Counted from the stretch's first letter, positions 1 to 9,045 are shown. The stretch is DNA of 64,000 bases from Bacilli bacterium (GCA_045601085.1 JAZRZD010000002.1:6106-70105); one strand, 5' to 3'. Made by a program: numbers and translations. The notes: a model not told the origin generated them from the sequence alone.

Positions 1-10
1 GTTATTAACG

Positions 11-1408
11 ATGTATGCATATCAAGGAGACTTATATCTTTACTTCTTTGCATCATCACCATTTACATTCGATGACGTTAGGATGGAATATTCCATCTCC
101 ACCACCCTTTCTGAAGATAGTACAACAATTATCGAAGATTGGCATGAACGTGGAGAAGCATTCCAATGCAGCGTTCACGATTACAATGGATCAGATAAGA
201 AATTTTACAAAGTTGTAGCTGAAGATTTCTATGATCATGATGTCGGAGATGTTCACCGTGTTAAAGTTAAAAAACTAAACATGTATCAAGGCGATGAATA
301 CCATTACATGTGCCGCAATTGTGACAATGCCGAATATTCATGGAAAGATGCAGCTCAAAACGAAGATCAAGTTTATACATATTATAAAGATAACTATTTA
401 ATAGTTAATGATGCTAAATATATCCAGCAACTAGTAAATACAAAGTATTCTACTGTTACTCAAACACAAGCTATCGAAGCTAGAGAAATAAATTGGTTAT
501 TCTTTACTTACGATTATTCCTCACTCGGCCCAAATTACCAGTTAGGAAAATTAAAAGAAATTGATATAGCTTACGAATATCTCAGCTATACAGCAACATA
601 CCGTGTAGATGGAGCACCATATGCCACTTTATATGCGGGTGGATACAAAGATCCAAACAATTTCTTTGATAGAAACGGTCATGGATCAAGAGAAGCAGAA
701 TTTACATTAAATAAATCAAATAGACTTGAGACTACAGTTACGCCGTCAACTAGAACAATCGATACAGTTACAGACCAAGCAACAATTTTCTTCTTCTGGA
801 ACATTACTCATAAAATCAATTATTCATATAACACGATTCAGGCATTAGATGATAATTCATTAAGTTCAATTGGAGACGCAGATTTTAAAAAATTCTGTGA
901 ATCCCAAAGAGATCACTACAAATGGGCTATTGATTTTAGAGAAGATAACCGTGTGTTACAAAAAACTGAAAACGATGTTCACGGCTTTGTTGAATGGTGG
1001 AAATCAACTCAAAAAGCCACCACTACTTGCCATCAAGCTTCTAGTGTTACAGCTACTAGATTTGTATTCGAAAACCAGGATGGAACTGCTGAATTAAATG
1101 CAATCATGAATCCTGTAGAGATTAGCGAAACTCTCGCTACTTCTCCAACTGTTTATACAACTGTCAGCTTTACATTAGGAAGCGAAGAAGCAACCAGAAA
1201 ATTCTGGATAATAGTTGGAATAATTGGAGGCATTCTTGGATTAGCTGGAATTATTTACTTAATTATTAAGCTAAAACGCAAAGGTGTCTTCAAGAAAAAA
1301 CCTAAAGAAAACGGAGGTAATAAAGATATGGCTTACAGAAGCAAATCATACAAACCTTATAATGCTAAAAAGGCTAAAAAAGGTTATAAACGTCGCAAAC
1401 GTTATTAA
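11..1408 (+). CDS. Phage membrane-anchored protein (possible adsorption/minor coat protein); may be 5'-truncated
   Basis: 465 aa ORF, C-terminal TM helix FWIIVGIIGGILGLAGIIYLII followed by a very basic tail. Confidence 0.6.
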   Translation: MYAYQGDLYLYFFASSPFTFDDVRMEYSISTTLSEDSTTIIEDWHERGEAFQCSVHDYNGSDKKFYKVVAEDFYDHDVGDVHRVKVKKLNMYQGDEYHYMCRNCDNAEYSWKDAAQNEDQVYTYYKDNYLIVNDAKYIQQLVNTKYSTVTQTQAIEAREINWLFFTYDYSSLGPNYQLGKLKEIDIAYEYLSYTATYRVDGAPYATLYAGGYKDPNNFFDRNGHGSREAEFTLNKSNRLETTVTPSTRTIDTVTDQATIFFFWNITHKINYSYNTIQALDDNSLSSIGDADFKKFCESQRDHYKWAIDFREDNRVLQKTENDVHGFVEWWKSTQKATTTCHQASSVTATRFVFENQDGTAELNAIMNPVEISETLATSPTVYTTVSFTLGSEEATRKFWIIVGIIGGILGLAGIIYLIIKLKRKGVFKKKPKENGGNKDMAYRSKSYKPYNAKKAKKGYKRRKRY

Positions 1409-1415
1409 TTAAAGG

Positions 1416-1775
1416 ATGTTCGGTGTTTTTAAAAAGCATCGCATTCTTAAGCTCATAGGTTTAACCTTTGGGCTTTTCCTTCTTTGGTATTTAGTATCTC
1501 CAGCAATTGATATTATCCGTGGCCAAGATGTCCAAATAACAGAATTAGTTGGAACATATGCTTATGGAACAGATCATATTGTTGAATTCTATACTGAGAC
1601 CATTGGAAAAATGGTAAGTGAAGGAGTTCCAACTGAATTTATGTATACATTAGATAAAGGAATAATCAGTTGCCATTCTGTTGGTGATAATCCTCATGAT
1701 TGGGAAATGAGAACTCTATCTAATGGAGCGATCTTCAATTGTTACGACTCCACTTACCTCTTTAAGAGGAATTAG
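1416..1775 (+). CDS. Small phage protein with N-terminal TM helix
   Basis: 119 aa ORF, hydrophobic LIGLTFGLFLLWYLV after basic N-terminus, AAGGA RBS. Confidence 0.65.
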   Translation: MFGVFKKHRILKLIGLTFGLFLLWYLVSPAIDIIRGQDVQITELVGTYAYGTDHIVEFYTETIGKMVSEGVPTEFMYTLDKGIISCHSVGDNPHDWEMRTLSNGAIFNCYDSTYLFKRN

Positions 1776-1776
1776 A

Positions 1777-4017
1777 ATGCAAGCTTTTAAAAGAATATTA
1801 AAGCATCTTATAGCTATTCTTATTATCTCTATTCCACTATTAGTCATTTATCTTAAAGAACCTTGGATGCTTCCAAGAATTATTGTTACTGGTCAATCAT
1901 TATTCAACAAAACTAAGTCATCAATATTGTTTTATATGAATAAGGAATATACAGCTCCTTATTTAATTGAAACAACTTGGAGCATTCCAGGAAGCGTTCA
2001 TATTATTCCAAACTTCAATTTTGATCTTTGGGGAAAATCAATAAAGAATTATTTCCAAATTTTGTTCTCTTATCAAAATTTTCTATCATGGACTTTAAGA
2101 ACCAGTGATGGATTAATTGCTTTATCAAGATTCTTAATGATTGCAATTTGCTTATTCTTGTTATTCTATCTTTTCTTTCAAGCTTATTTTGATGAAAATC
2201 AATTCGATTACACTAGAAAAAGCAAACCTTTGCAGTTCTATTTGAAGCTCAAGGAAGGATTCTTTACTAAAATTAAGAATGCCGTTGTTAGCTTCATTAA
2301 ATGGTTTAAATCATCTATTTATTTTTCAATTTTAATTACAATAATAATTTTCAATTTTGCATTGCCATTCTTAGTAATCGATCTTGTTTCTGAATATTTT
2401 TACATCTTTACAAGCTTTGATTTTGTTTCATTGTTAGACACAGTTTCTTCTGCAATTATAACAATTTACCAAGGCATAGCTTTCTTCCCATTGTTTATAA
2501 AAATTTTATTCATATTAGTTTTGATTAGAATTTTAACTTTGTTAAGAGCTAGAAGATTTATAGAAGGAAAATTAATTCCAAGAGATGAAAAGATGGTAAA
2601 TAACGATACTGGAGTTTTCACTTTGATCCTAGGAAAAATGCGAGGCGGTAAAACAACATTAGCAACTTCCATGGCCAGAATCATGAACACCATTTATCAC
2701 AAAAATGCTTACGAAAACATGACTCGAGTCTCATTAATGTTTCCAGATTTTCCATATATTGCTTTAGAAAAAGAAATTATTCGATTAGCTAAAAAGCGAA
2801 GGATAGTTAATATGGAACAAGCTGCAAAATATGTGATGAACATTTATAAAGCTGGTAACAGTAAACCATTTGTTCTATTCGGTTATGATGTTAGTAAGCA
2901 AAAAACATTCTTCTATGACGGTGCTTCTTCGTTAAGTTTAGAAGATGCATTAATAATTTATGCAGAAAGTTATTGGATCTACTTCCATGACGGTAACTTA
3001 ATTGCATCCAATTTCCCAATAAGAACAGATGACATTAAATTAGATAATGGCCATCTGATTTTGTGGGATTATGACTATTTTAGAAGAAAAAACAAAACAG
3101 AATTATGGAAACATTCTTCTTTATCTCACATCTTAGTTTTTGATTCTCTAAGAATGGGAAAGAAGATTGATTCGAAAAACATTTATAAAGATACAGCTGG
3201 ACCTATGGTTGCTGTTTCTACAGAATTCGGCAAAGAATATGGAAATATGGTTACTAATTTGGCCTATGATCCAAAAGATGATAAGGCAAATCCTAAAAAC
3301 GATTTATTGGATTATTCCTTAAAACTTGGCGGACATATGGCAAATATATGGCATACCAATTTCTTCAAATTTATTGCCGATGAACAAAGAAGCGGATCAT
3401 TATCTGCTAATTTAGTTGATGTAGCTCAATCAATATTTACAGCTGATAAAAAGAATCAAAAGGAAAAATGTGCCCTACACCTATTCGTGTATGAGCCGCT
3501 TATCTTAGATTGGATAATTTCAATTAGAGAAAGATTTTATACAAAGTATAGATTTGCAAGAGAGGATTCAACACTCTTGTTTTATCTTCTTAATCGCTTA
3601 GCTAATTATGCTTATGCAATTGAGTCATTTGTATATATGCGTTATGGATATAAACAAATTAATCTTCCTAGATGTACTTGTGATTCAACAGGAAACATTA
3701 AAGAAGGCGACATGGAGAAATTTTATATCATTAACTTCATTGATTATGCTGATAGATTCGAATCGGCTTGTATGAAGGATTTCTTAAATCAACACAAGAA
3801 AGATGCATACAGAGGATTCTTTGATCTACCAGAATATAAAAAGTTAATGCCAAATAAAGTTGAATGGTCGACTCAGGGAAGTTATCTAGTAAATGATTTA
3901 CTGGATCCAACTCGTAAATTTAGCGCAACTCTCTCTTCCAAGCATGGTAACGGCTCCAGGCGAACAAGTGTCGCGGACCGTTACCATCTTAGGAAAGGAG
4001 GCGCTAATAAGAGATGA
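1777..4017 (+). CDS. Zot/pI-like morphogenesis ATPase with N-terminal TM segments
   Basis: Walker A GKMRGGKTT after several hydrophobic helices; start moved to ATG 1777 (GAGGA RBS at 1766-1770) instead of track start 1723. Confidence 0.7.
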   Translation: MQAFKRILKHLIAILIISIPLLVIYLKEPWMLPRIIVTGQSLFNKTKSSILFYMNKEYTAPYLIETTWSIPGSVHIIPNFNFDLWGKSIKNYFQILFSYQNFLSWTLRTSDGLIALSRFLMIAICLFLLFYLFFQAYFDENQFDYTRKSKPLQFYLKLKEGFFTKIKNAVVSFIKWFKSSIYFSILITIIIFNFALPFLVIDLVSEYFYIFTSFDFVSLLDTVSSAIITIYQGIAFFPLFIKILFILVLIRILTLLRARRFIEGKLIPRDEKMVNNDTGVFTLILGKMRGGKTTLATSMARIMNTIYHKNAYENMTRVSLMFPDFPYIALEKEIIRLAKKRRIVNMEQAAKYVMNIYKAGNSKPFVLFGYDVSKQKTFFYDGASSLSLEDALIIYAESYWIYFHDGNLIASNFPIRTDDIKLDNGHLILWDYDYFRRKNKTELWKHSSLSHILVFDSLRMGKKIDSKNIYKDTAGPMVAVSTEFGKEYGNMVTNLAYDPKDDKANPKNDLLDYSLKLGGHMANIWHTNFFKFIADEQRSGSLSANLVDVAQSIFTADKKNQKEKCALHLFVYEPLILDWIISIRERFYTKYRFAREDSTLLFYLLNRLANYAYAIESFVYMRYGYKQINLPRCTCDSTGNIKEGDMEKFYIINFIDYADRFESACMKDFLNQHKKDAYRGFFDLPEYKKLMPNKVEWSTQGSYLVNDLLDPTRKFSATLSSKHGNGSRRTSVADRYHLRKGGANKR

Positions 4018-5318
4018 GTATGAATAACAATGAGAGCGGAGCGGGGCGTAATGGTAATACGCCCCCTAAAAAGTTCGAAACGACTTCCGTTTGTATCGAT
4101 TATCTAAAGATAAGAGTTACAGGGAATCGTGAAGAAGATAGGAGTAGATTTGAAAATTTATTCAAAATACTTCAAGTTTATGAATACGAAACGGAAAAGA
4201 GTAATGGACGTTATGGATACCAAACAATGTTAGGTTTATTTCCTGGATGTACATTCAACTATGGAGGCCATTTCACAAAAACTTCAAAAGGTGAAGATAC
4301 TTCACTGCTCGAAATGTCAGGAAAGGGCTGTAGAGAGTTTGAGGATAGATATTTCTCATTTAATCCAGATAGAGGAATCTTAACTAGAGAAGAAATTTTA
4401 AGATCTGGATGGATTGCCTTAATTGAAGAATGCAGTCGATTGGGTGGCGTAGCTACCAGAATTGATATACCAGTTGATGATATGTCTGGTGTATTAGAAA
4501 TTGCTGAAATTAAAGAAAAAATTTCAAAAAAAGAATATGCAACTAGAATGCGAAAGCTTTCTACCTCACTATCTCATGATGAGGAAGAACACCAAGAATC
4601 AGTTTTACAAGAACCTGATAAATTGCGTGATAGAGTGTCAACAGAAGACGCAAAAAGAACGGGTTATTCAGCTACTTTTGGCAATCGCGATCATTTACAA
4701 CTTTGCATTTATGACAAGGCTGCTGAACAACATAATAAAGGAAATTTTATGAATGTTGAAAAATGGATAAGATTCGAAGTTCGATATTATCATAAAAATG
4801 CGGAATTGTTGCTTCCACTACTTCTTGATAGTCTAAAGAAAAAGGATTTTCACAAATTTGCAGTTGCTCGATTAAAAGGAATCTTTGAATTTAAAGAATG
4901 TTTAGATAATAAAAATCGCGCGAAAAACAAATCCTGGTCAAAATGGGAAGAATTTACAAACGGTGTCGAAAAAGAATCTGGATTTTCCATAGTTCATGGT
5001 GTTCCGACTATTCAATCAAACGCTTTATGGCTCAAAAAGGATGCATCATTAGCACTTGGCAAACTAGTATCTTGCTTAGATGTGCCTTTAAGTGAAATGA
5101 TGGCAGCTTATGCGTTAGAGTTTATTCATAGAGCTGATAATTCACACCTACAAGCTATAAATCAATGGCGTAGAAGCAAAAACAAGGAACCATTTAGAAA
5201 TCTTAAGGAAGTTAAAAATTACATCATTTCCAAACCAGATTTTCCTGATGAAATTCACGAAGAAACAATAACAATGATTCTTGCGATTGGAAAACCAGAA
5301 AAAGATGATAAAGGATAA
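4014..5318 (+). CDS. Rolling-circle replication initiation factor (Rep_trans family)
   Basis: IDYLKI, LLEMSGKGCREFE, TRIDIPVDD, CIYDKAAEQ, WIRFEVRY motifs typical of Rep_trans. Confidence 0.85.
   Translation: MSMNNNESGAGRNGNTPPKKFETTSVCIDYLKIRVTGNREEDRSRFENLFKILQVYEYETEKSNGRYGYQTMLGLFPGCTFNYGGHFTKTSKGEDTSLLEMSGKGCREFEDRYFSFNPDRGILTREEILRSGWIALIEECSRLGGVATRIDIPVDDMSGVLEIAEIKEKISKKEYATRMRKLSTSLSHDEEEHQESVLQEPDKLRDRVSTEDAKRTGYSATFGNRDHLQLCIYDKAAEQHNKGNFMNVEKWIRFEVRYYHKNAELLLPLLLDSLKKKDFHKFAVARLKGIFEFKECLDNKNRAKNKSWSKWEEFTNGVEKESGFSIVHGVPTIQSNALWLKKDASLALGKLVSCLDVPLSEMMAAYALEFIHRADNSHLQAINQWRRSKNKEPFRNLKEVKNYIISKPDFPDEIHEETITMILAIGKPEKDDKG
4043..4065 (+). other. Candidate double-strand origin (nick-site hairpin)
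   Basis: Perfect 8-bp GC stem GGGGCGTA/TACGCCCC, loop ATGGTAA, T^AATA as in the pT181-family nick context. Confidence 0.55.
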
Positions 5319-5475
5319 TGAAATTGTTGTACTTACAAAGGATGATTTTATAAAACTTTCAAAAGAAAAACCTCTAATAGATGAAAAATCTATTCGAAAA
5401 TTAATGGTTCCTATATTAGCAGAAATGATTCGTGCTAAATATATATCTGATAAAAAGAAATCCTCAGATGGTTAA
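5305..5475 (+). CDS. Small hypothetical phage protein
   Basis: ATG overlapping the rep 3' end (MIKDNEIV...), co-oriented. Confidence 0.45.
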   Translation: MIKDNEIVVLTKDDFIKLSKEKPLIDEKSIRKLMVPILAEMIRAKYISDKKKSSDG

Positions 5476-5495
5476 AAAGCCAAATGAGGATTTTT

Positions 5496-5870
5496 TTAAT
5501 ATCTATTAAGATTTTTTATAATTTCATCGGTATTTGCTTTTATCTCTTTTTCGAGATCGCTAAGCTCATCAAGGATTTCAGAGTTAACAAGTTGAATGAA
5601 ATCATTATCATTAGTTCTTCTTTTGATATCTCTCGTTTTTTTAAAGCGCATTATTTTTTCAATTGCTTTATTTATATCGTTATAAAGGTAATCGCTTATA
5701 TAAGAATTATCAAAAAGGAAGTCATTATATTCATTCATTTTTTTAATGGATTTAGAAACTTTTTTGATCGTGTTGCTTCTGAGACAATACAGATTCATTA
5801 GATTGTCACAAAAAGCATTACGTCTAATTTCGAAGTCAAAATTAACATTCTCTAAATCATAATTTTTCAT
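5496..5870 (-). CDS. Hypothetical protein (phage accessory)
   Basis: GAAGGAG RBS before ATG at 5870 (MKNYDLE...), 124 aa. Confidence 0.6.
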   Translation of the reverse strand: MKNYDLENVNFDFEIRRNAFCDNLMNLYCLRSNTIKKVSKSIKKMNEYNDFLFDNSYISDYLYNDINKAIEKIMRFKKTRDIKRRTNDNDFIQLVNSEILDELSDLEKEIKANTDEIIKNLNRY

Positions 5871-6092
5871 ATAAGCTCCTTCTATTAATGGTAATTTTGA
5901 GCCTTTATTTGACTTAAATATCAATAAGGCTACCCTTCGGCTCTAGGGCGAAACGTACAGCTATCTATTACGGCCCATAGGTACTTGAATGCCGGGCGAA
6001 CACGAATACTTAGCGCCATCTACGAAGCCTTCTAGAACAGCTTAAAAATAGTATATCACGTGTTTAATAAAAGTGTTATATTTTTTTAATAA

Positions 6093-6278
6093 TTATTTAA
6101 TAAGACCATCTTTGATGAAAAGTTCATTTAAAACTCGCTTTTGCTTCATCGTTGGATTATATTTTCCATTTTCCCACCTATTTAATGTAACGAAACTTAC
6201 ACCTAATTGAGCTGCAAACTCTTCCTGAGTAAGAAAATGCTTTTCTCTATATTTTTTAATTAATTTTGCGAAATCCAT
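6093..6278 (-). CDS. XRE-family HTH regulator
   Basis: LTQEEFAAQLGVSFVTLNRWENGK HTH motif; start at MDFAK with AAGGA RBS. Confidence 0.85.
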   Translation of the reverse strand: MDFAKLIKKYREKHFLTQEEFAAQLGVSFVTLNRWENGKYNPTMKQKRVLNELFIKDGLIK

Positions 6279-6484
6279 ATTAAATCCTTGTATCAGTATT
6301 ATAACATTTGAATTGAGTGAAGAAAAAGCACCAATTACGGTGCTAATTTCTATCCAATGATCTTTCAAGTCTTTCTCTCTCTAATCTTCGAGCTTTAGCT
6401 CTTTCAAGATAAGGACCAAGATCATCATGGAAGGCATACAGATATTTATTTACATAAATACATTGGTACGCCTGATACTTCGTT

Positions 6485-6561
6485 TGGTGACCCATATCGG
6501 ATTCGAACCGATGAATGTATCCTTGAGAGGGATATGAGTTAAGCCTCTTCTCCAATGGGCC
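6485..6561 (-). tRNA. tRNA-Glu(CTC)
   Basis: Cloverleaf GGCCCAT...ATGGGTCACCA, anticodon loop CTCTCAA. Confidence 0.95.
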
Positions 6562-6576
6562 ATAAGAGTCATTGCT

Positions 6577-8238
6577 CTATAAAGAGGCAATAACTTTATC
6601 TATTCTTTTATCACATCTATCCTTAGAAAGGACTTTCATGACGTAATATAAGTTAGGGGAATTCTTCTTACCAGTTAAGGTAATTCTAAGCATCTCTGCT
6701 ACATCAGAGACACTTCCAATATATTTGTCTGATTCAAGCTTATATTCTTTACCACTACCAGCGTAGCCTAAAGAAGAAGCAATTTCTTTTAAATTATTAA
6801 ACCAGGATTGTTCATCTTGATCTAATGATAAATTCTCTTTAACTTTTAAGAGAGTTTCTTTAATTATCTCTTTAGAGAATTTCTCATTATATGGTTCTTT
6901 AACTATAGAATCATATTTATCATCATAGAAGAATGAGATAGAAGACACTAAGTCAGAGAGTTTTTCATAATCTTTTCTTGGTTTTTCTTTCTCTCTTTCA
7001 ATATTCATAATATCCATAAAATAGTTTTCATCTCTAGAGATAAGTTCTTTAAGTTCTGGATCATATTCATTAGCGTAATTCTTAGCTAAATATAATATTT
7101 CATATTTAGTTTTTCTCGCTAATATCTCTTTTGAAAAGAATTTTAATTTACCAATATCAAATAATGCACCTTCTCTAGAGAACTTTTCAAAAGAGAAATT
7201 AAATTCTTCCATATGGGAGAAATTATGAGCAAATATCCATTCTTCAAAATTAGAATTAGCAATGGTATATAAATACATTATTAATGCTTCTGTTGGATAA
7301 CCATCTTTAAGGAAGTATGATACTGCTGCTTCATTATCTAACCTTTTAGATAATTTACGTTTATTACCAGTAGTATCATCTACTTTCATAATTACAGGTA
7401 GATGAGCGTAGTTAGGAAGTTTCCAACCTAAAGTAGTAAATAATTCTACATGGATTGGTAAAGATGATATCCATTCTTCTCCTCTTATAACAGTGTTAGT
7501 TCTCATAAAGTGATCATCTACTGCGTGCGCAAAGTGATAGGTTGGAAGACCATCACTTTTTAAGATAACGATATCTTGATCATTTTCCACTCCATCAAGA
7601 GTGCCTCTAATTAAATCATAGAACTTAACTTTTCTTATATGGTTACCACTACTTTTAAATCTAATAACGTATTTCTCACCATTTTTAATCTTTTCTGCTT
7701 TTTCATCATTATTTAAGAATCTACATTTAGCGAACACTCCATAATAACCAGGAATAATTTTATTAGCTTCTTGTTTGCTTCTTATATCATCAAGAGCTTC
7801 TTGAGAACAAAAACAAGGATAGGCTCTACCAATAGAGATTAAGTATTTAATACATACTTTATAGATATACGCTCTATGGGATTGTTGATATGGGCCATAG
7901 TTACCTTCTTCATGATCACCAAAATATCCCTCAAATGGAGCGATATTAAAAGTATGTAATTGATCAAGTAGTTGTTTACCACTACCTTCAATTTCTCTTT
8001 TAGTGTCTGTATCCTCTAATCTAACAAAGAATACACCACCAGTTTGACTTGCGAATTTATGACATATCATACTGGTAAACAAACTACCAGTATGTAAGAA
8101 ACCTGTAGGAGAAGGAGCAAACCTTGTAACCAAGGCACCTTCTTTAAGGTTTCTTGGAGGGTATTTCTTCTCAAGGTCATCAATAGTTTCTTTAATATCA
8201 GGGAATATAAGTTCTGCAAGTTCTTTATCTGTAATCAT
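6577..8238 (-). CDS. gltX: Glutamate--tRNA ligase
   Basis: TRFAPSPTGFLHTGS (HIGH-like) and KLSKR motifs. Confidence 0.95.
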   Translation of the reverse strand: MITDKELAELIFPDIKETIDDLEKKYPPRNLKEGALVTRFAPSPTGFLHTGSLFTSMICHKFASQTGGVFFVRLEDTDTKREIEGSGKQLLDQLHTFNIAPFEGYFGDHEEGNYGPYQQSHRAYIYKVCIKYLISIGRAYPCFCSQEALDDIRSKQEANKIIPGYYGVFAKCRFLNNDEKAEKIKNGEKYVIRFKSSGNHIRKVKFYDLIRGTLDGVENDQDIVILKSDGLPTYHFAHAVDDHFMRTNTVIRGEEWISSLPIHVELFTTLGWKLPNYAHLPVIMKVDDTTGNKRKLSKRLDNEAAVSYFLKDGYPTEALIMYLYTIANSNFEEWIFAHNFSHMEEFNFSFEKFSREGALFDIGKLKFFSKEILARKTKYEILYLAKNYANEYDPELKELISRDENYFMDIMNIEREKEKPRKDYEKLSDLVSSISFFYDDKYDSIVKEPYNEKFSKEIIKETLLKVKENLSLDQDEQSWFNNLKEIASSLGYAGSGKEYKLESDKYIGSVSDVAEMLRITLTGKKNSPNLYYVMKVLSKDRCDKRIDKVIASL

Positions 8239-8337
8239 AATAAAATCTCCGTTAGTAATTATATTTCATTATTCATATTATTTCATTTAAATAAATATGA
8301 TTTATCAAATGTAACAATAAGATTGCCATTAAAAGTG

Positions 8338-8365
8338 TTGATAATACATATAGTTGTGATAACAT
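8338..8365 (+). promoter_or_regulatory. sigmaA-type promoter of sRNA 1
   Basis: TTGATA-N16-TAACAT with TGn extension; same pattern recurs at 8790, 8925, 9377 and 9612. Confidence 0.65.
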
Positions 8366-8368
8366 AGA

Positions 8369-8430
8369 GGTATCAAGGATCTAGGTGACCTTAAAAAGAA
8401 AGAGAGTGGGGGCAAACCACTCTCTTTTTT
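8369..8430 (+). ncRNA. Putative antitoxin sRNA 1
   Basis: Promoter, about 30 nt body, terminator AAGAGAGTGG-loop-CCACTCTCTT-T run; 5' end complementary to 3' UTR of the antisense peptide mRNA. Confidence 0.6.
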
Positions 8431-8460
8431 CATTTACATCAGGTGCCAAGGATCTAGGTT

Positions 8461-8553
8461 TTAGTATTTAATTAAAACTACTAATACAATTAACAGTACT
8501 AATATAAATACCGTTGTAGAGAGAAACTCTTTAATAAGAATCTCTCCTTTCAT
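8461..8553 (-). CDS. Putative type I toxin peptide 1 (MKGEILIKEFLSTTVFILVLLIVLVVLIKY)
   Basis: 30-aa single-TM peptide translated by hand; paralogues at 9046 and 9426 keep the C-terminal frame. Confidence 0.65.
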   Translation of the reverse strand: MKGEILIKEFLSTTVFILVLLIVLVVLIKY

Positions 8554-8557
8554 AAAT

Positions 8558-8593
8558 CTAGATTACCATGGCGCCCGGTAATCTCTTTAGCAT
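8558..8593 (-). CDS. Leader uORF (MLKRLPGAMVI)
   Basis: GGAGG RBS 7 nt before ATG; stop 4 nt before toxin ATG; equivalent uORF in unit 2. Confidence 0.45.
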   Translation of the reverse strand: MLKRLPGAMVI

Positions 8594-8820
8594 CCTTGTG
8601 CCTCCTTTTTGTAAACTATCCGAATTACTCCGGCAAAACAAAAGTTAACATATATAAAATATTTAATCAAATACCCATATAGCGTTCCATATTATAAATA
8701 ATATAGTTACTTATATATAAACTAATAATATAGTATTTATTATTTAAATATGGAAAAATTTTATTAAAAAATTATTCCATAATAAAGTATTGATAATTAT
8801 AGGATAGATGATATTATAAA

Positions 8821-8880
8821 GATGCCAAAGTGCTAGAAAAAATTAAAGAAAAGAGAGGGGTTGCAGCCACTCTCTTTTTC
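8821..8880 (+). ncRNA. Putative orphan sRNA 2
   Basis: TTGATA-N16-TATTAT promoter (8790-8817), diverged 5' seed, same terminator family, no peptide gene opposite. Confidence 0.5.
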
Positions 8881-8955
8881 ATTATCTATTAATAATTCTA
8901 GAGAGTAGCACCACTCAAAAAGTATTGATAAATGGTACCACTATGATAATATATA

Positions 8956-9016
8956 GGTATCAAGGATCTAGACAATCTAAAAAAGAAAGAGAGTGGTTGC
9001 ACCCACTCTCTTTTTT
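8956..9016 (+). ncRNA. Putative antitoxin sRNA 3
   Basis: Promoter 8925-8952, GGTATCAAGGATCTAG 5' end, shared bidirectional terminator. Confidence 0.6.
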
Positions 9017-9045
9017 CATTTACATCTGGCGTCAAGAATCTAGAC

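Follow-up and report, generated by a model that had tools for sequence, protein, structure and literature searches.

Gene content and boundaries of the element

We describe here an integrated element at the left end of a 64,000-nucleotide stretch of DNA from a Bacilli bacterium (hereafter the window), corresponding to positions 6106-70105 of contig C2 (JAZRZD010000002.1) in a 0.79-Mb assembly of 34 contigs that is 75% complete (GCA_045601085.1). Contig sequence to the left of the window was taken from C2:1-12700 (locus L001). The original prediction had placed an inovirus-like prophage at window positions 1-6480. This region is only the right half of the element: the whole copy measures about 11.5-12 kb and spans C2 ~690 to 12,590 (window -5,400 to 6,484), its row of plus-strand genes begins at C2 1123, ~5.0 kb left of window position 1, and its right boundary is the tRNA-Glu gene at window 6485-6561, not position 6480.

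The tightly packed row opens with a 176-aa soluble protein (C2 1123-1653), followed by N-terminally anchored proteins of 240, 550, 414 and 164 aa, the 550-aa one with a weak match to Big_2, and then by a 539-aa protein, a 119-aa N-anchored protein, an ATPase and a rolling-circle replication (RCR) initiator, Rep. The anchored proteins range from 119 to 550 aa, and cytoplasmic products of the core are limited to Rep, the 176-aa protein and regulators, all other core proteins being membrane-inserted. No lysin or holin genes were found in the element, nor conjugation or type IV secretion system (T4SS) Pfam domains among its 17 open reading frames (ORFs); conjugation genes to the left, which the original prediction had named as a sign of a conjugative rather than a viral origin, are likewise missing. 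The features of the window part and its flank are as follows.

1-1408, plus strand: C-terminal 468 residues of the 539-aa protein, whose gene (C2 5894-7513) starts 211 nt left of the window
1416-1775, plus strand: 119-aa protein with one N-terminal transmembrane (TM) helix, in a position like that of gVI in Ff, no family match
1777-4017, plus strand: 746-aa membrane ATPase, Walker A at 2632-2655; a 764-aa ORF spans 1723-4017
4014-5318, plus strand: 434-aa RCR initiator Rep, with Rol_Rep_N and Rep_trans, its start overlapping the ATPase stop
5281-5475, plus strand: 64-aa ORF past Rep, function not assigned, no homologue among the fetched loci; relatives have unrelated 51-84-aa ORFs there
5496-5924, minus strand: 142-aa ORF, no family match, in the slot that holds integrase or defence cargo in relatives
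5954-5995, no strand: 42-nt non-coding core CGTACAGCTATCTATTACGGCCCATAGGTACTTGAATGCCGG, candidate replication origin or nick region
6093-6368, minus strand: 91-aa XRE-type helix-turn-helix (HTH) regulator, tRNA-proximal (HTH_3, 3.6e-12)
6485-6561, minus strand: tRNA-Glu(CUC), 3' end toward the element, presumed integration target and right boundary
6577-8238, minus strand: gltX, glutamyl-tRNA synthetase (tRNA-synt_1c, 1.4e-61), host flank outside the element

The TM proteins seen in the original prediction are those encoded at 1-1408 (C-terminal TM helix plus basic tail) and 1416-1775 (N-terminal TM helix). Translation table 11 gives long frames and fits the locus, since code 4 (TGA read as Trp) extends no core gene meaningfully and adds nothing useful; code 4 was therefore rejected. 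Two paralogous XRE HTH genes, 44% identical and both on the minus strand, bracket the element (C2 688-888, 66 aa, and window 6093-6368). The left one has the same orientation as a 231-aa orphan ORF on the minus strand that runs off the contig start, and overlaps its beginning; in relatives the minus-strand HTH gene lies beside the integrase or upstream of the module. A 70-aa minus-strand ORF at window 6343-6555 overlaps tRNA-Glu and is almost certainly not a real gene; what looks like a homologue in L017 is a translated tRNA.

As the original prediction had noted, no integrase is in view, either in the window part of the element or in the 6.1 kb that the contig extends further left. Elsewhere in the assembly we found just weak, partial matches (C13, C29 and C2:57.7-58.2 kb), none linked to the element. 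A repeat of the tRNA-Glu 3' end that could serve as the second attachment (att) site of this copy was found neither in the contig nor in the genome, and the contig probably does not reach as far as the left end. Since no integrase is in view, this copy, whose core is intact, may not be capable of excision, or may need a recombinase encoded at another locus.

A lineage of circular and tRNA-integrated elements

The nine-gene core order (176-aa protein, N-anchored proteins, 164-aa protein, ~540-aa C-anchored protein, ~120-aa protein, ATPase, Rep) recurs in at least 12 independent contigs, which we judge to be far beyond chance. The synteny is seen in L003, L009-L011, L013, L014, L021, L051, L052 and L054-L056, as well as in circular genomes. 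Three assemblies yielded contigs of 12.5-12.8 kb in which one gene set is circularly permuted: the ends of L022 share an exact 141-bp overlap, the signature of a MEGAHIT k141 circle, and the contig closes to 12,673 bp; L023, from a separate JGI metagenome, has a 36-bp overlap and closes to 12,511 bp; and L019 is a third permutation with its break inside rep. These circles carry a tyrosine integrase after Rep, an ATPase 37% identical to the one described here, and recognisable homologues of the 176-, 164-, 539- and 119-aa proteins. Terminal overlaps were absent from six further contigs of 12-15 kb.

In integrated copies Rep points at the 3' end of a tRNA gene, which is tRNA-Glu in this copy, L020 and L017, tRNA-Ala in L009, L011 and L014, and tRNA-Thr in L004. 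In L017, where the integrase adjoins tRNA-Glu, the row from HTH to integrase is bracketed by the two copies, 14.8 kb apart, of a 19-bp direct repeat (AAATGGTGACCTATACGGG) to which the 3' end of the tRNA belongs (chance expectation ~1e-5 for the space searched). An integrase beside Rep is absent from about half of the copies, this one included, small ORFs or defence genes being found there instead. Defence cargo lies between Rep and the tRNA or att end in L020/L021 (4.5-12.3 kb), L002 (12.9-20.3 kb), L007 (13.9-18.4 kb) and L055 (13.9-22.2 kb), and comprises McrBC with cytosine methylases, Dnd-like genes (PAPS_reduct/Fer4, DUF4007, cysteine desulfurase), GmrSD with a type I methylase, and a BREX BrxC/PglY-like gene; the elements are therefore vehicles of defence genes.

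L055 and L056, copies from two other samples, were compared with this one. The structural module plus ATPase (L001 1855-10910) is 86-87% nucleotide-identical to them over 8.3-8.9 kb, while identity drops to ~67%, or no relation is seen, in the flanks, in the 176-aa gene and over the 3' part of rep. This indicates, at the level of sequence, that replication and regulation modules have been exchanged between copies; with the module conserved and rep and flanks swapped, the pattern is therefore the mosaic one of a recombining mobile element. Taken together, these data show a discrete lineage of integrative elements that recombine, target tRNA genes, have a circular 12.5-kb form and carry an RCR initiator.

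A polytopic membrane ATPase outside described families

The likely start of the ATPase is ATG 1777, which has AAGAGGA in front of it and lies 1 nt past the stop of the upstream gene; because of this context, and because homologues are 741-753 aa long, we prefer a length of 746 aa over the 764-aa frame, to which the residue numbers below refer. A polytopic N-terminal membrane domain (residues ~21-290, window 1783-2592), with at least five hydrophobic segments here and in the homologues, is fused to a 450-aa P-loop domain, and AlphaFold2 (AF2) models nine helices before residue 292. The original prediction was thus right about TM helices preceding the P-loop and about a length of some 750 aa, against about 200-450 aa for pI of inoviruses. 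Walker A (GKMRGGKT) occupies residues 304-311 (window 2632-2655) and is followed by two acidic motifs, VAVSTE at +190 residues and FIADEQ at +245, which hold the invariant T500-E501 (window 3220-3225) and D553-E-Q555 (3379-3387). Over 71 sequences K310, R434, G443, R477, E501, K504, N523, D527 and S720 are invariant, and D553, Q555 and R556 nearly so.

No family assignment was obtained from Pfam, PHROGs, NCBIfam, PADLOC or PDB sequences, and a profile of the 71 sequences matched nothing in the PDB beyond the P-loop. The label 'Zot-like' given in the original prediction could not be upheld, as Zot (PF05707) matched neither this protein nor 22 homologues even at E <= 1. FtsK_SpoIIIE (PF01580) did not match the protein either, and in a six-frame search of the whole genome the corresponding hidden Markov model (HMM) found the host ftsK (C25) as its sole match; the refutation that the original prediction had named, an ATPase clustering with VirB4/FtsK and conjugation genes to the left, thus fails. 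Profile comparison with hhalign gave 9% probability against a 60-sequence Zot alignment and the same 9% against 21 FtsK motors, which does not discriminate between the two, and a choice on this basis was dropped. A full-length AF2 model (pLDDT 74) yielded nothing usable in a fold search. The model of the domain alone (residues 290-739; pLDDT 92.8, pTM 0.88) gave Foldseek matches to HerA (E 0.02), the genome-packaging ATPase B204 of STIV2 (0.05) and the Zot N-domain 2r2a (0.19; rank 21, probability 0.8 over 89 columns), all of them weak (E >= 0.02, TM-score <= 0.33, none at E <= 0.001). pI itself has been placed in the FtsK-HerA superfamily (Roux et al. 2019, PMC6813254). We conclude that the protein is probably a deeply divergent P-loop ATPase of the additional strand catalytic glutamate (ASCE) class, within or near the FtsK-HerA superfamily, and that it cannot be called Zot, FtsK, VirB4 or VirD4.

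The family is nonetheless a large one, since a search of 1.84 billion representatives returned 1,122 clusters (50% identity) at E <= 1e-3 and 563 at E <= 1e-30, nearly all of 700-790 aa and matched end to end. The open-access papers that we searched describe neither this ATPase family nor this type of element.

These properties bear on the proposal that the element is an extremely divergent but true member of Tubulavirales (a strict inovirus or plectrovirus), whose ATPase would be a pI homologue that has gained a polytopic N-domain and whose virion would be a filament with single-stranded DNA (ssDNA). We consider this quite improbable. pI proteins are recognised by Zot (PF05707) as closest Pfam domain and by one or two TM domains at the N- or C-terminus (Roux et al. 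2019, PMC6813254), and the ATPase fails on both counts, with no Zot match and at least five TM segments. The distance from Walker A to the acidic motifs is also larger, 190-245 residues against roughly 100 in the aligned Zot family of Dulem virus 51. The presence of 2r2a among the fold neighbours speaks for the proposal, as do properties of Rep and of the gene order described below.

A replication initiator and a candidate origin

The Rep_trans assignment of the original prediction is secure. Rep matches Rep_trans (PF02486) at 4.6e-25 with 88.8 bits (cut-off 29.6), Rol_Rep_N (PF18106) at 4.1e-6 with 27.4 bits (cut-off 23.7) and the replication initiation family phrog_453 at 3.8e-17. On the NCBIfam MobT model it scores 53.4 bits, against an equivalog cut-off of 600, and Pfam finds no N-terminal HTH in it. 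An HTH plus PF02486 architecture marks the MOBT relaxases from ICEs (integrative and conjugative elements; PMC6499999). Because Rol_Rep_N and Rep_trans are present and the N-terminal HTH is absent, Rep looks by its domains like a replication initiator rather than a relaxase. Its nearest matches are distant ones (23-29% identity) and belong to the inovirus Dulem virus 51, which carries Zot and an integrase besides Rep, to a streptococcal satellite and to small Firmicutes plasmids.

A Rep_trans gene lies directly downstream of the ATPase here and in at least 12 relatives. In two distant relatives whose ATPase is 26-28% identical to this one, the same slot is taken by a G2P/ORF2-type initiator (PF23343, 1.2e-13; L002 11324-12388, L007 11926-13005), and in L004 by an HTH_36 protein. 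With Rep_trans, G2P or HTH_36 in one slot, the replication modules that accompany the ATPase and membrane proteins are therefore interchangeable, and the lineage contains, to judge from domain matches, both of the Rep types that filamentous phages use. Further genes of inovirus type, for example a replication initiator, are present at most pI loci (Roux et al. 2019, PMC6813254), and in this respect the present locus and its relatives, with Rep_trans or G2P/ORF2-type genes, resemble them. An inovirus from lemur faeces likewise has an adjacent pair of Rep_trans and integrase genes, which counts in favour of Tubulavirales.

The 42-nt core after rep (L001 12059-12100) is identical at 41 of 42 positions in L020/L021, at the matching place, even though the flanks have diverged and the Rep of L020/L021 is just 44% identical. 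It sits inside a G+C-rich intergenic stretch (~5925-6045) and is, from its conservation and position, a candidate replication origin or nick region. Neither the stretch nor the core has an Rfam match, and with no significant fold either (z -0.4 and +0.6) a structured RNA or single-strand origin in this region was rejected.

The replication genes also bear on a non-viral explanation. Actinomycete integrative and conjugative elements (AICEs) combine integration at tRNA 3' ends, an integrase, an RCR Rep, a single membrane-anchored ATPase, small membrane proteins and a repressor within 9-24 kb. The element could accordingly be a device of the pSAM2 type for DNA transfer from cell to cell, its ATPase acting as a TraB/FtsK or coupling protein, the main rival to a virus-like reading, though one that we hold to be rather unlikely; Rep would then amplify the excised circle, the ATPase would pump DNA into a neighbour and the surface proteins would be adhesins or Spd-like spreading proteins. 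The parts agree by function class (tRNA 3'-end integration, tyrosine integrase, RCR Rep, N-terminally anchored ATPase, membrane proteins, repressor, 11-15 kb), the succession of ATPase and Rep_trans genes mirrors orf21-orf20 of Tn916, Rep has its weak similarity to MobT, and the fold neighbours of the ATPase are of HerA/FtsK type. Set against this, FtsK_SpoIIIE was matched by the host ftsK only, VirB4, VirD4, TcpA, VirB6, VirB8 and cell-wall hydrolase domains are absent from the element and from the called genes of relatives, and Rep lacks the MOBT N-terminal HTH and stays at 53 bits where 600 are called for. In distant relatives, moreover, Rep_trans is replaced by the G2P type, a phage Rep.

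Membrane proteins and the 176-aa protein

The 539-aa protein has a signal peptide, a conserved ectodomain of ~440 aa, a C-terminal TM helix (residues 470-496) and a 43-aa tail rich in Lys, Arg and Tyr. This layout is shared in an alignment of nine homologues, the K/R-rich tail being found in 9/9, and the protein has no Pfam, PHROG or PDB-profile match. Its gene stands where gIII stands in Ff, and nothing in AICEs corresponds to such a highly conserved 540-aa protein, in which an ectodomain is combined with a basic tail in the cytoplasm, which weighs against the transfer device. The 119-aa protein, the smallest TM protein of the module, has 13 homologues of 109-149 aa and is in every case encoded by the gene directly upstream of the ATPase, where Ff has gVI.

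The original prediction had suggested looking to the left for a short coat protein, and none is there: no gene for a coat-like protein of 30-90 aa with a single TM helix occurs in this element, a further argument against Tubulavirales. Distant relatives do have genes for single-TM proteins of 47-97 aa directly upstream of the ATPase, which the Tubulavirales proposal can claim for itself. Two internal products of the 539-aa gene were also considered. A pVIII-like coat protein from an internal start upstream of the TM helix was rejected, the Met being conserved and the site having no conserved Shine-Dalgarno sequence. The basic tail (window 1313-1408) contains an in-frame ATG (1328) preceded by GGAGG (1313-1317); this Met is missing in 8/8 aligned homologues, in which the K/R-rich character of the tail is conserved, and a separately translated tail peptide is not supported because its Met is unconserved.

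The 176-aa protein, product of the first module gene, has homologues in L003, L009, L014, L051, L055 and L056. In 7/15 sequences of its family an acidic C-terminus closes with [DEN]x[PILM]PF, the ends including ..DTPF, ..PLPF, ..NIPF, ..DMPF and ..KLPF. The C-terminal tip of bacterial single-stranded DNA-binding protein (SSB) resembles such an acidic ..PF end, and we regard the 176-aa protein as SSB-like by its tail; a profile search of the PDB with the family returned nothing. SSB-like proteins are common on conjugative elements, which suits the AICE-style explanation.

All module proteins are orphans, and the low-complexity linkers and the Big_2 or Flg_new repeats of their ectodomains recall surface adhesins. 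From this it might be argued that the element is an integrative RCR plasmid whose membrane module exports no DNA and serves, for example, the export of surface proteins or adhesins or surface remodelling, being carried as cargo of benefit to the host. This seems to us very unlikely: across ATPase identities of ~25-97% and three initiator types a replication initiator, and nothing else, invariably accompanies the module; it is the conserved part of the element, the defence genes being confined to the variable slot after Rep; and it keeps its 86-87% nucleotide identity between copies in which Rep and flanks have been swapped.

Hosts and distribution

The genomes of host-family relatives measure 0.9-1.8 Mb. 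The penicillin-binding protein (PBP) transpeptidase domain PF00905 is absent from this genome and from 8/9 family relatives, several of which are 94-99% complete, and is present in 5/6 genomes from other families of the order. Because PF00905 is absent, the host family is probably wall-less, with a single membrane as the only barrier. The monoderm, genome-reduced host of the original prediction agrees with these data, as the assembly holds 0.79 Mb at 75% completeness.

The named carriers of close ATPase homologues are 'Bacilli bacterium' metagenome-assembled genomes (MAGs) from rumen and gut and Candidatus Enteromonas, those of distant homologues Christensenella, Clostridia and Erysipelotrichales MAGs. 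In the host's order the family occurs in 20/201 genomes (~10%) and 14/52 genera, some copies having stop codons. None of 72,556 plasmids contains it, a further point against an AICE-style element. A pattern scan of IMG/VR and a tblastn search of INPHARED each found only one relative, inside contigs of 84 and 57 kb; this scarcity in the virus collections searched would suit a transfer element.

A virus-like reading and a possible mechanism

As we read these data, the chances are about even that the element represents a lineage, so far undescribed, of virus-like elements that are temperate and non-lytic, assemble at the membrane, replicate by RCR and follow an inovirus-like logic. Finely balanced, too, is the assignment of the membrane module to virus-like non-lytic export or assembly. 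Somewhat below this, and put forward tentatively, stands the stronger claim of a new lineage, of family level or higher, of non-tailed, non-lytic viruses of gut and rumen Firmicutes, with virions made wholly of membrane-inserted proteins and extruded or budded by an unrecognised FtsK-HerA-type ATPase with its own polytopic conduit; with the same reserve we suggest that the hosts of such a lineage would include wall-less, RF39-like reduced-genome lineages.

We favour the virus-like reading for six reasons. Only Rep, the SSB-like protein and regulators are cytoplasmic, as in filamentous phages. The genes of Ff follow the order gIII-gVI-gI-gII, to which the order of large C-anchored protein, small TM protein, ATPase and Rep corresponds. 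Phage-type initiators accompany the module. HerA, B204 and Zot are the folds nearest to that of the ATPase. The host barrier is a single membrane. Finally, Dehalococcoides IME1, whose gene set is comparable, has been linked with particles (bioRxiv 10.64898/2026.09.15.751708). Gene order and the split between membrane and cytoplasm would serve Tubulavirales equally, as would the presence in the lineage of both Rep_trans and G2P, which are both used by inoviruses. That proposal has also to contend with the size of the elements, since 12.5-14.8 kb exceeds the ~4 to ~11 kb of characterised filamentous bacterial viruses (10.64898/2026.09.15.751708), and with the module's lack of a match to any PHROG family of inoviruses. 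Of the inovirus-like prophage of the original prediction there thus remains an integrated RCR element with a membrane module and an Ff-like gene order; membership of Inoviridae, with no Zot and at least five TM segments, is not supported.

The steps of a virus-like cycle would be the following. Rep would nick the origin, perhaps the 42-nt core after rep, and give rise to single-stranded circles, which the SSB-like 176-aa protein would coat. The ATPase, presumably as an oligomer with its N-terminal domain as membrane conduit, would move the DNA through the single membrane, where pre-inserted membrane proteins, the 539-aa protein contacting DNA with its basic tail, would assemble around it; the product, released without lysis, would be either a filament that is extruded or an enveloped particle that buds. 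Attachment would fall to the ectodomains, of which one is Ig-like (Big_2). In shape, the particle might be filamentous or, like that of plasmavirus L2, enveloped and pleomorphic (PMC12662186); what speaks against a classical inovirus filament is the lack of a short coat gene, together with the large size of the ectodomains. A tailless icosahedral virus with an internal membrane, of the PM2/PRD1 type, was considered on account of the B204 match and is unlikely, as there is no soluble capsid candidate, all module proteins but the SSB-like one being membrane-anchored.

Several observations weigh against the virus-like reading. The lineage is known from assembled sequence alone, not from particles, and the circular contigs could stem from a plasmid state or from tandem copies. 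A link of the ATPase to Zot is missing in Pfam, no better than that to FtsK in hhalign (9% each) and weak in Foldseek. A coat-like gene is wanting, the anchored proteins being of 119-550 aa, and this copy has no integrase. The module proteins have no PHROG match here or in distant relatives, and the single relatives found in INPHARED and in IMG/VR both lie in contigs far longer than the circles.

Should particles be made, the elements would amount to a widespread and so far unrecognised group of chronic, non-lytic viruses in the gut and rumen virome, and the marker ATPase could be used to find them, as pI is for inoviruses. The hosts of such viruses would be uncultured, reduced-genome, probably wall-less Bacilli, for which, to our knowledge, no phages have been described. 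Should the element be a transfer device, it would represent a conjugation-like Firmicutes system with one ATPase and no T4SS. Either way, the ATPase is a large protein family, absent from Pfam and PHROGs, with a clear genomic context and testable motifs.

Comparison with known systems

With Inoviridae and Tubulavirales (Ff, CTXphi, Dulem virus 51 PP511381) the element shares a small circular RCR replicon with a Rep of the Rep_trans or G2P type, a temperate habit with an integrase in many members, genes all on one strand, and the absence of lysis genes. Presumed structural proteins are all membrane-inserted in both, the order of large C-anchored protein, small TM protein, ATPase and Rep is alike, and the fold neighbours of the ATPase, though weak matches, are FtsK-HerA-like. 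It differs from them in its ATPase (746 aa, at least five TM segments and no Zot, against about 200-450 aa and one or two TM domains in pI), in lacking a coat gene of 30-90 aa next to anchored proteins of 119-550 aa, and in a genome of 12.5-14.8 kb, and the PHROG and Pfam families shared with them are limited to Rep, integrase and HTH.

Acholeplasma virus L2 (Plasmaviridae, L13696) is likewise a temperate circle of ~12 kb with nearly all genes on one strand, a tyrosine integrase, integration at a tRNA gene, a wall-less low-G+C host and large envelope-type proteins with signal peptides, and its release is by non-lytic budding (PMC12662186). Unlike the element, L2 replicates bidirectionally from DnaA-box origins with the host replisome and has neither an RCR Rep nor a polytopic membrane ATPase. 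Kinship between the two was rejected: BLASTP of all L2 ORFs against the element family recovered only the integrase and the HTH repressor, and hhalign of the ATPase profile with L2 ORF1 and ORF13 gave probabilities below 1%.

In the modules of Tn916 and ICESt3 and in integrative and mobilisable elements (IMEs) of the MOBT type, a membrane-anchored ATPase gene is immediately followed by a PF02486 gene, again within integrated Firmicutes elements. The element differs from these in having no T4SS genes, an ATPase without FtsK, TcpA or VirD4 domain, and a Rep with Rol_Rep_N in place of the MOBT N-terminal HTH (PMC6499999), far below the MobT cut-off. AICEs such as pSAM2 have their part list in common with the element at the level of function classes. 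They differ in that TraB has a clear FtsK_SpoIIIE domain and the element's ATPase none, in that the hosts of the element are unicellular and of Firmicutes type, and in that its membrane proteins have large conserved ectodomains.

The IME1 elements of Dehalococcoides, compared here by description only, encode a pI-like ATPase and TM proteins and are abundant in virus fractions (bioRxiv 10.64898/2026.09.15.751708). They differ from the element in being 21-28 kb long, in using a primase-helicase and not an RCR Rep, in having been reported only in Chloroflexota, and in an ATPase that, according to the preprint, is recognisably pI-like by sequence, as the element's is not. Both have integrated and episomal forms, a tyrosine recombinase, no hallmark genes of tailed phages, and a pI- or packaging-related ATPase followed by a row of TM or signal-peptide proteins, with a repressor on the opposite strand. 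IME1 elements have been proposed to be budding or filamentous non-lytic viruses (bioRxiv 10.64898/2026.09.15.751708).

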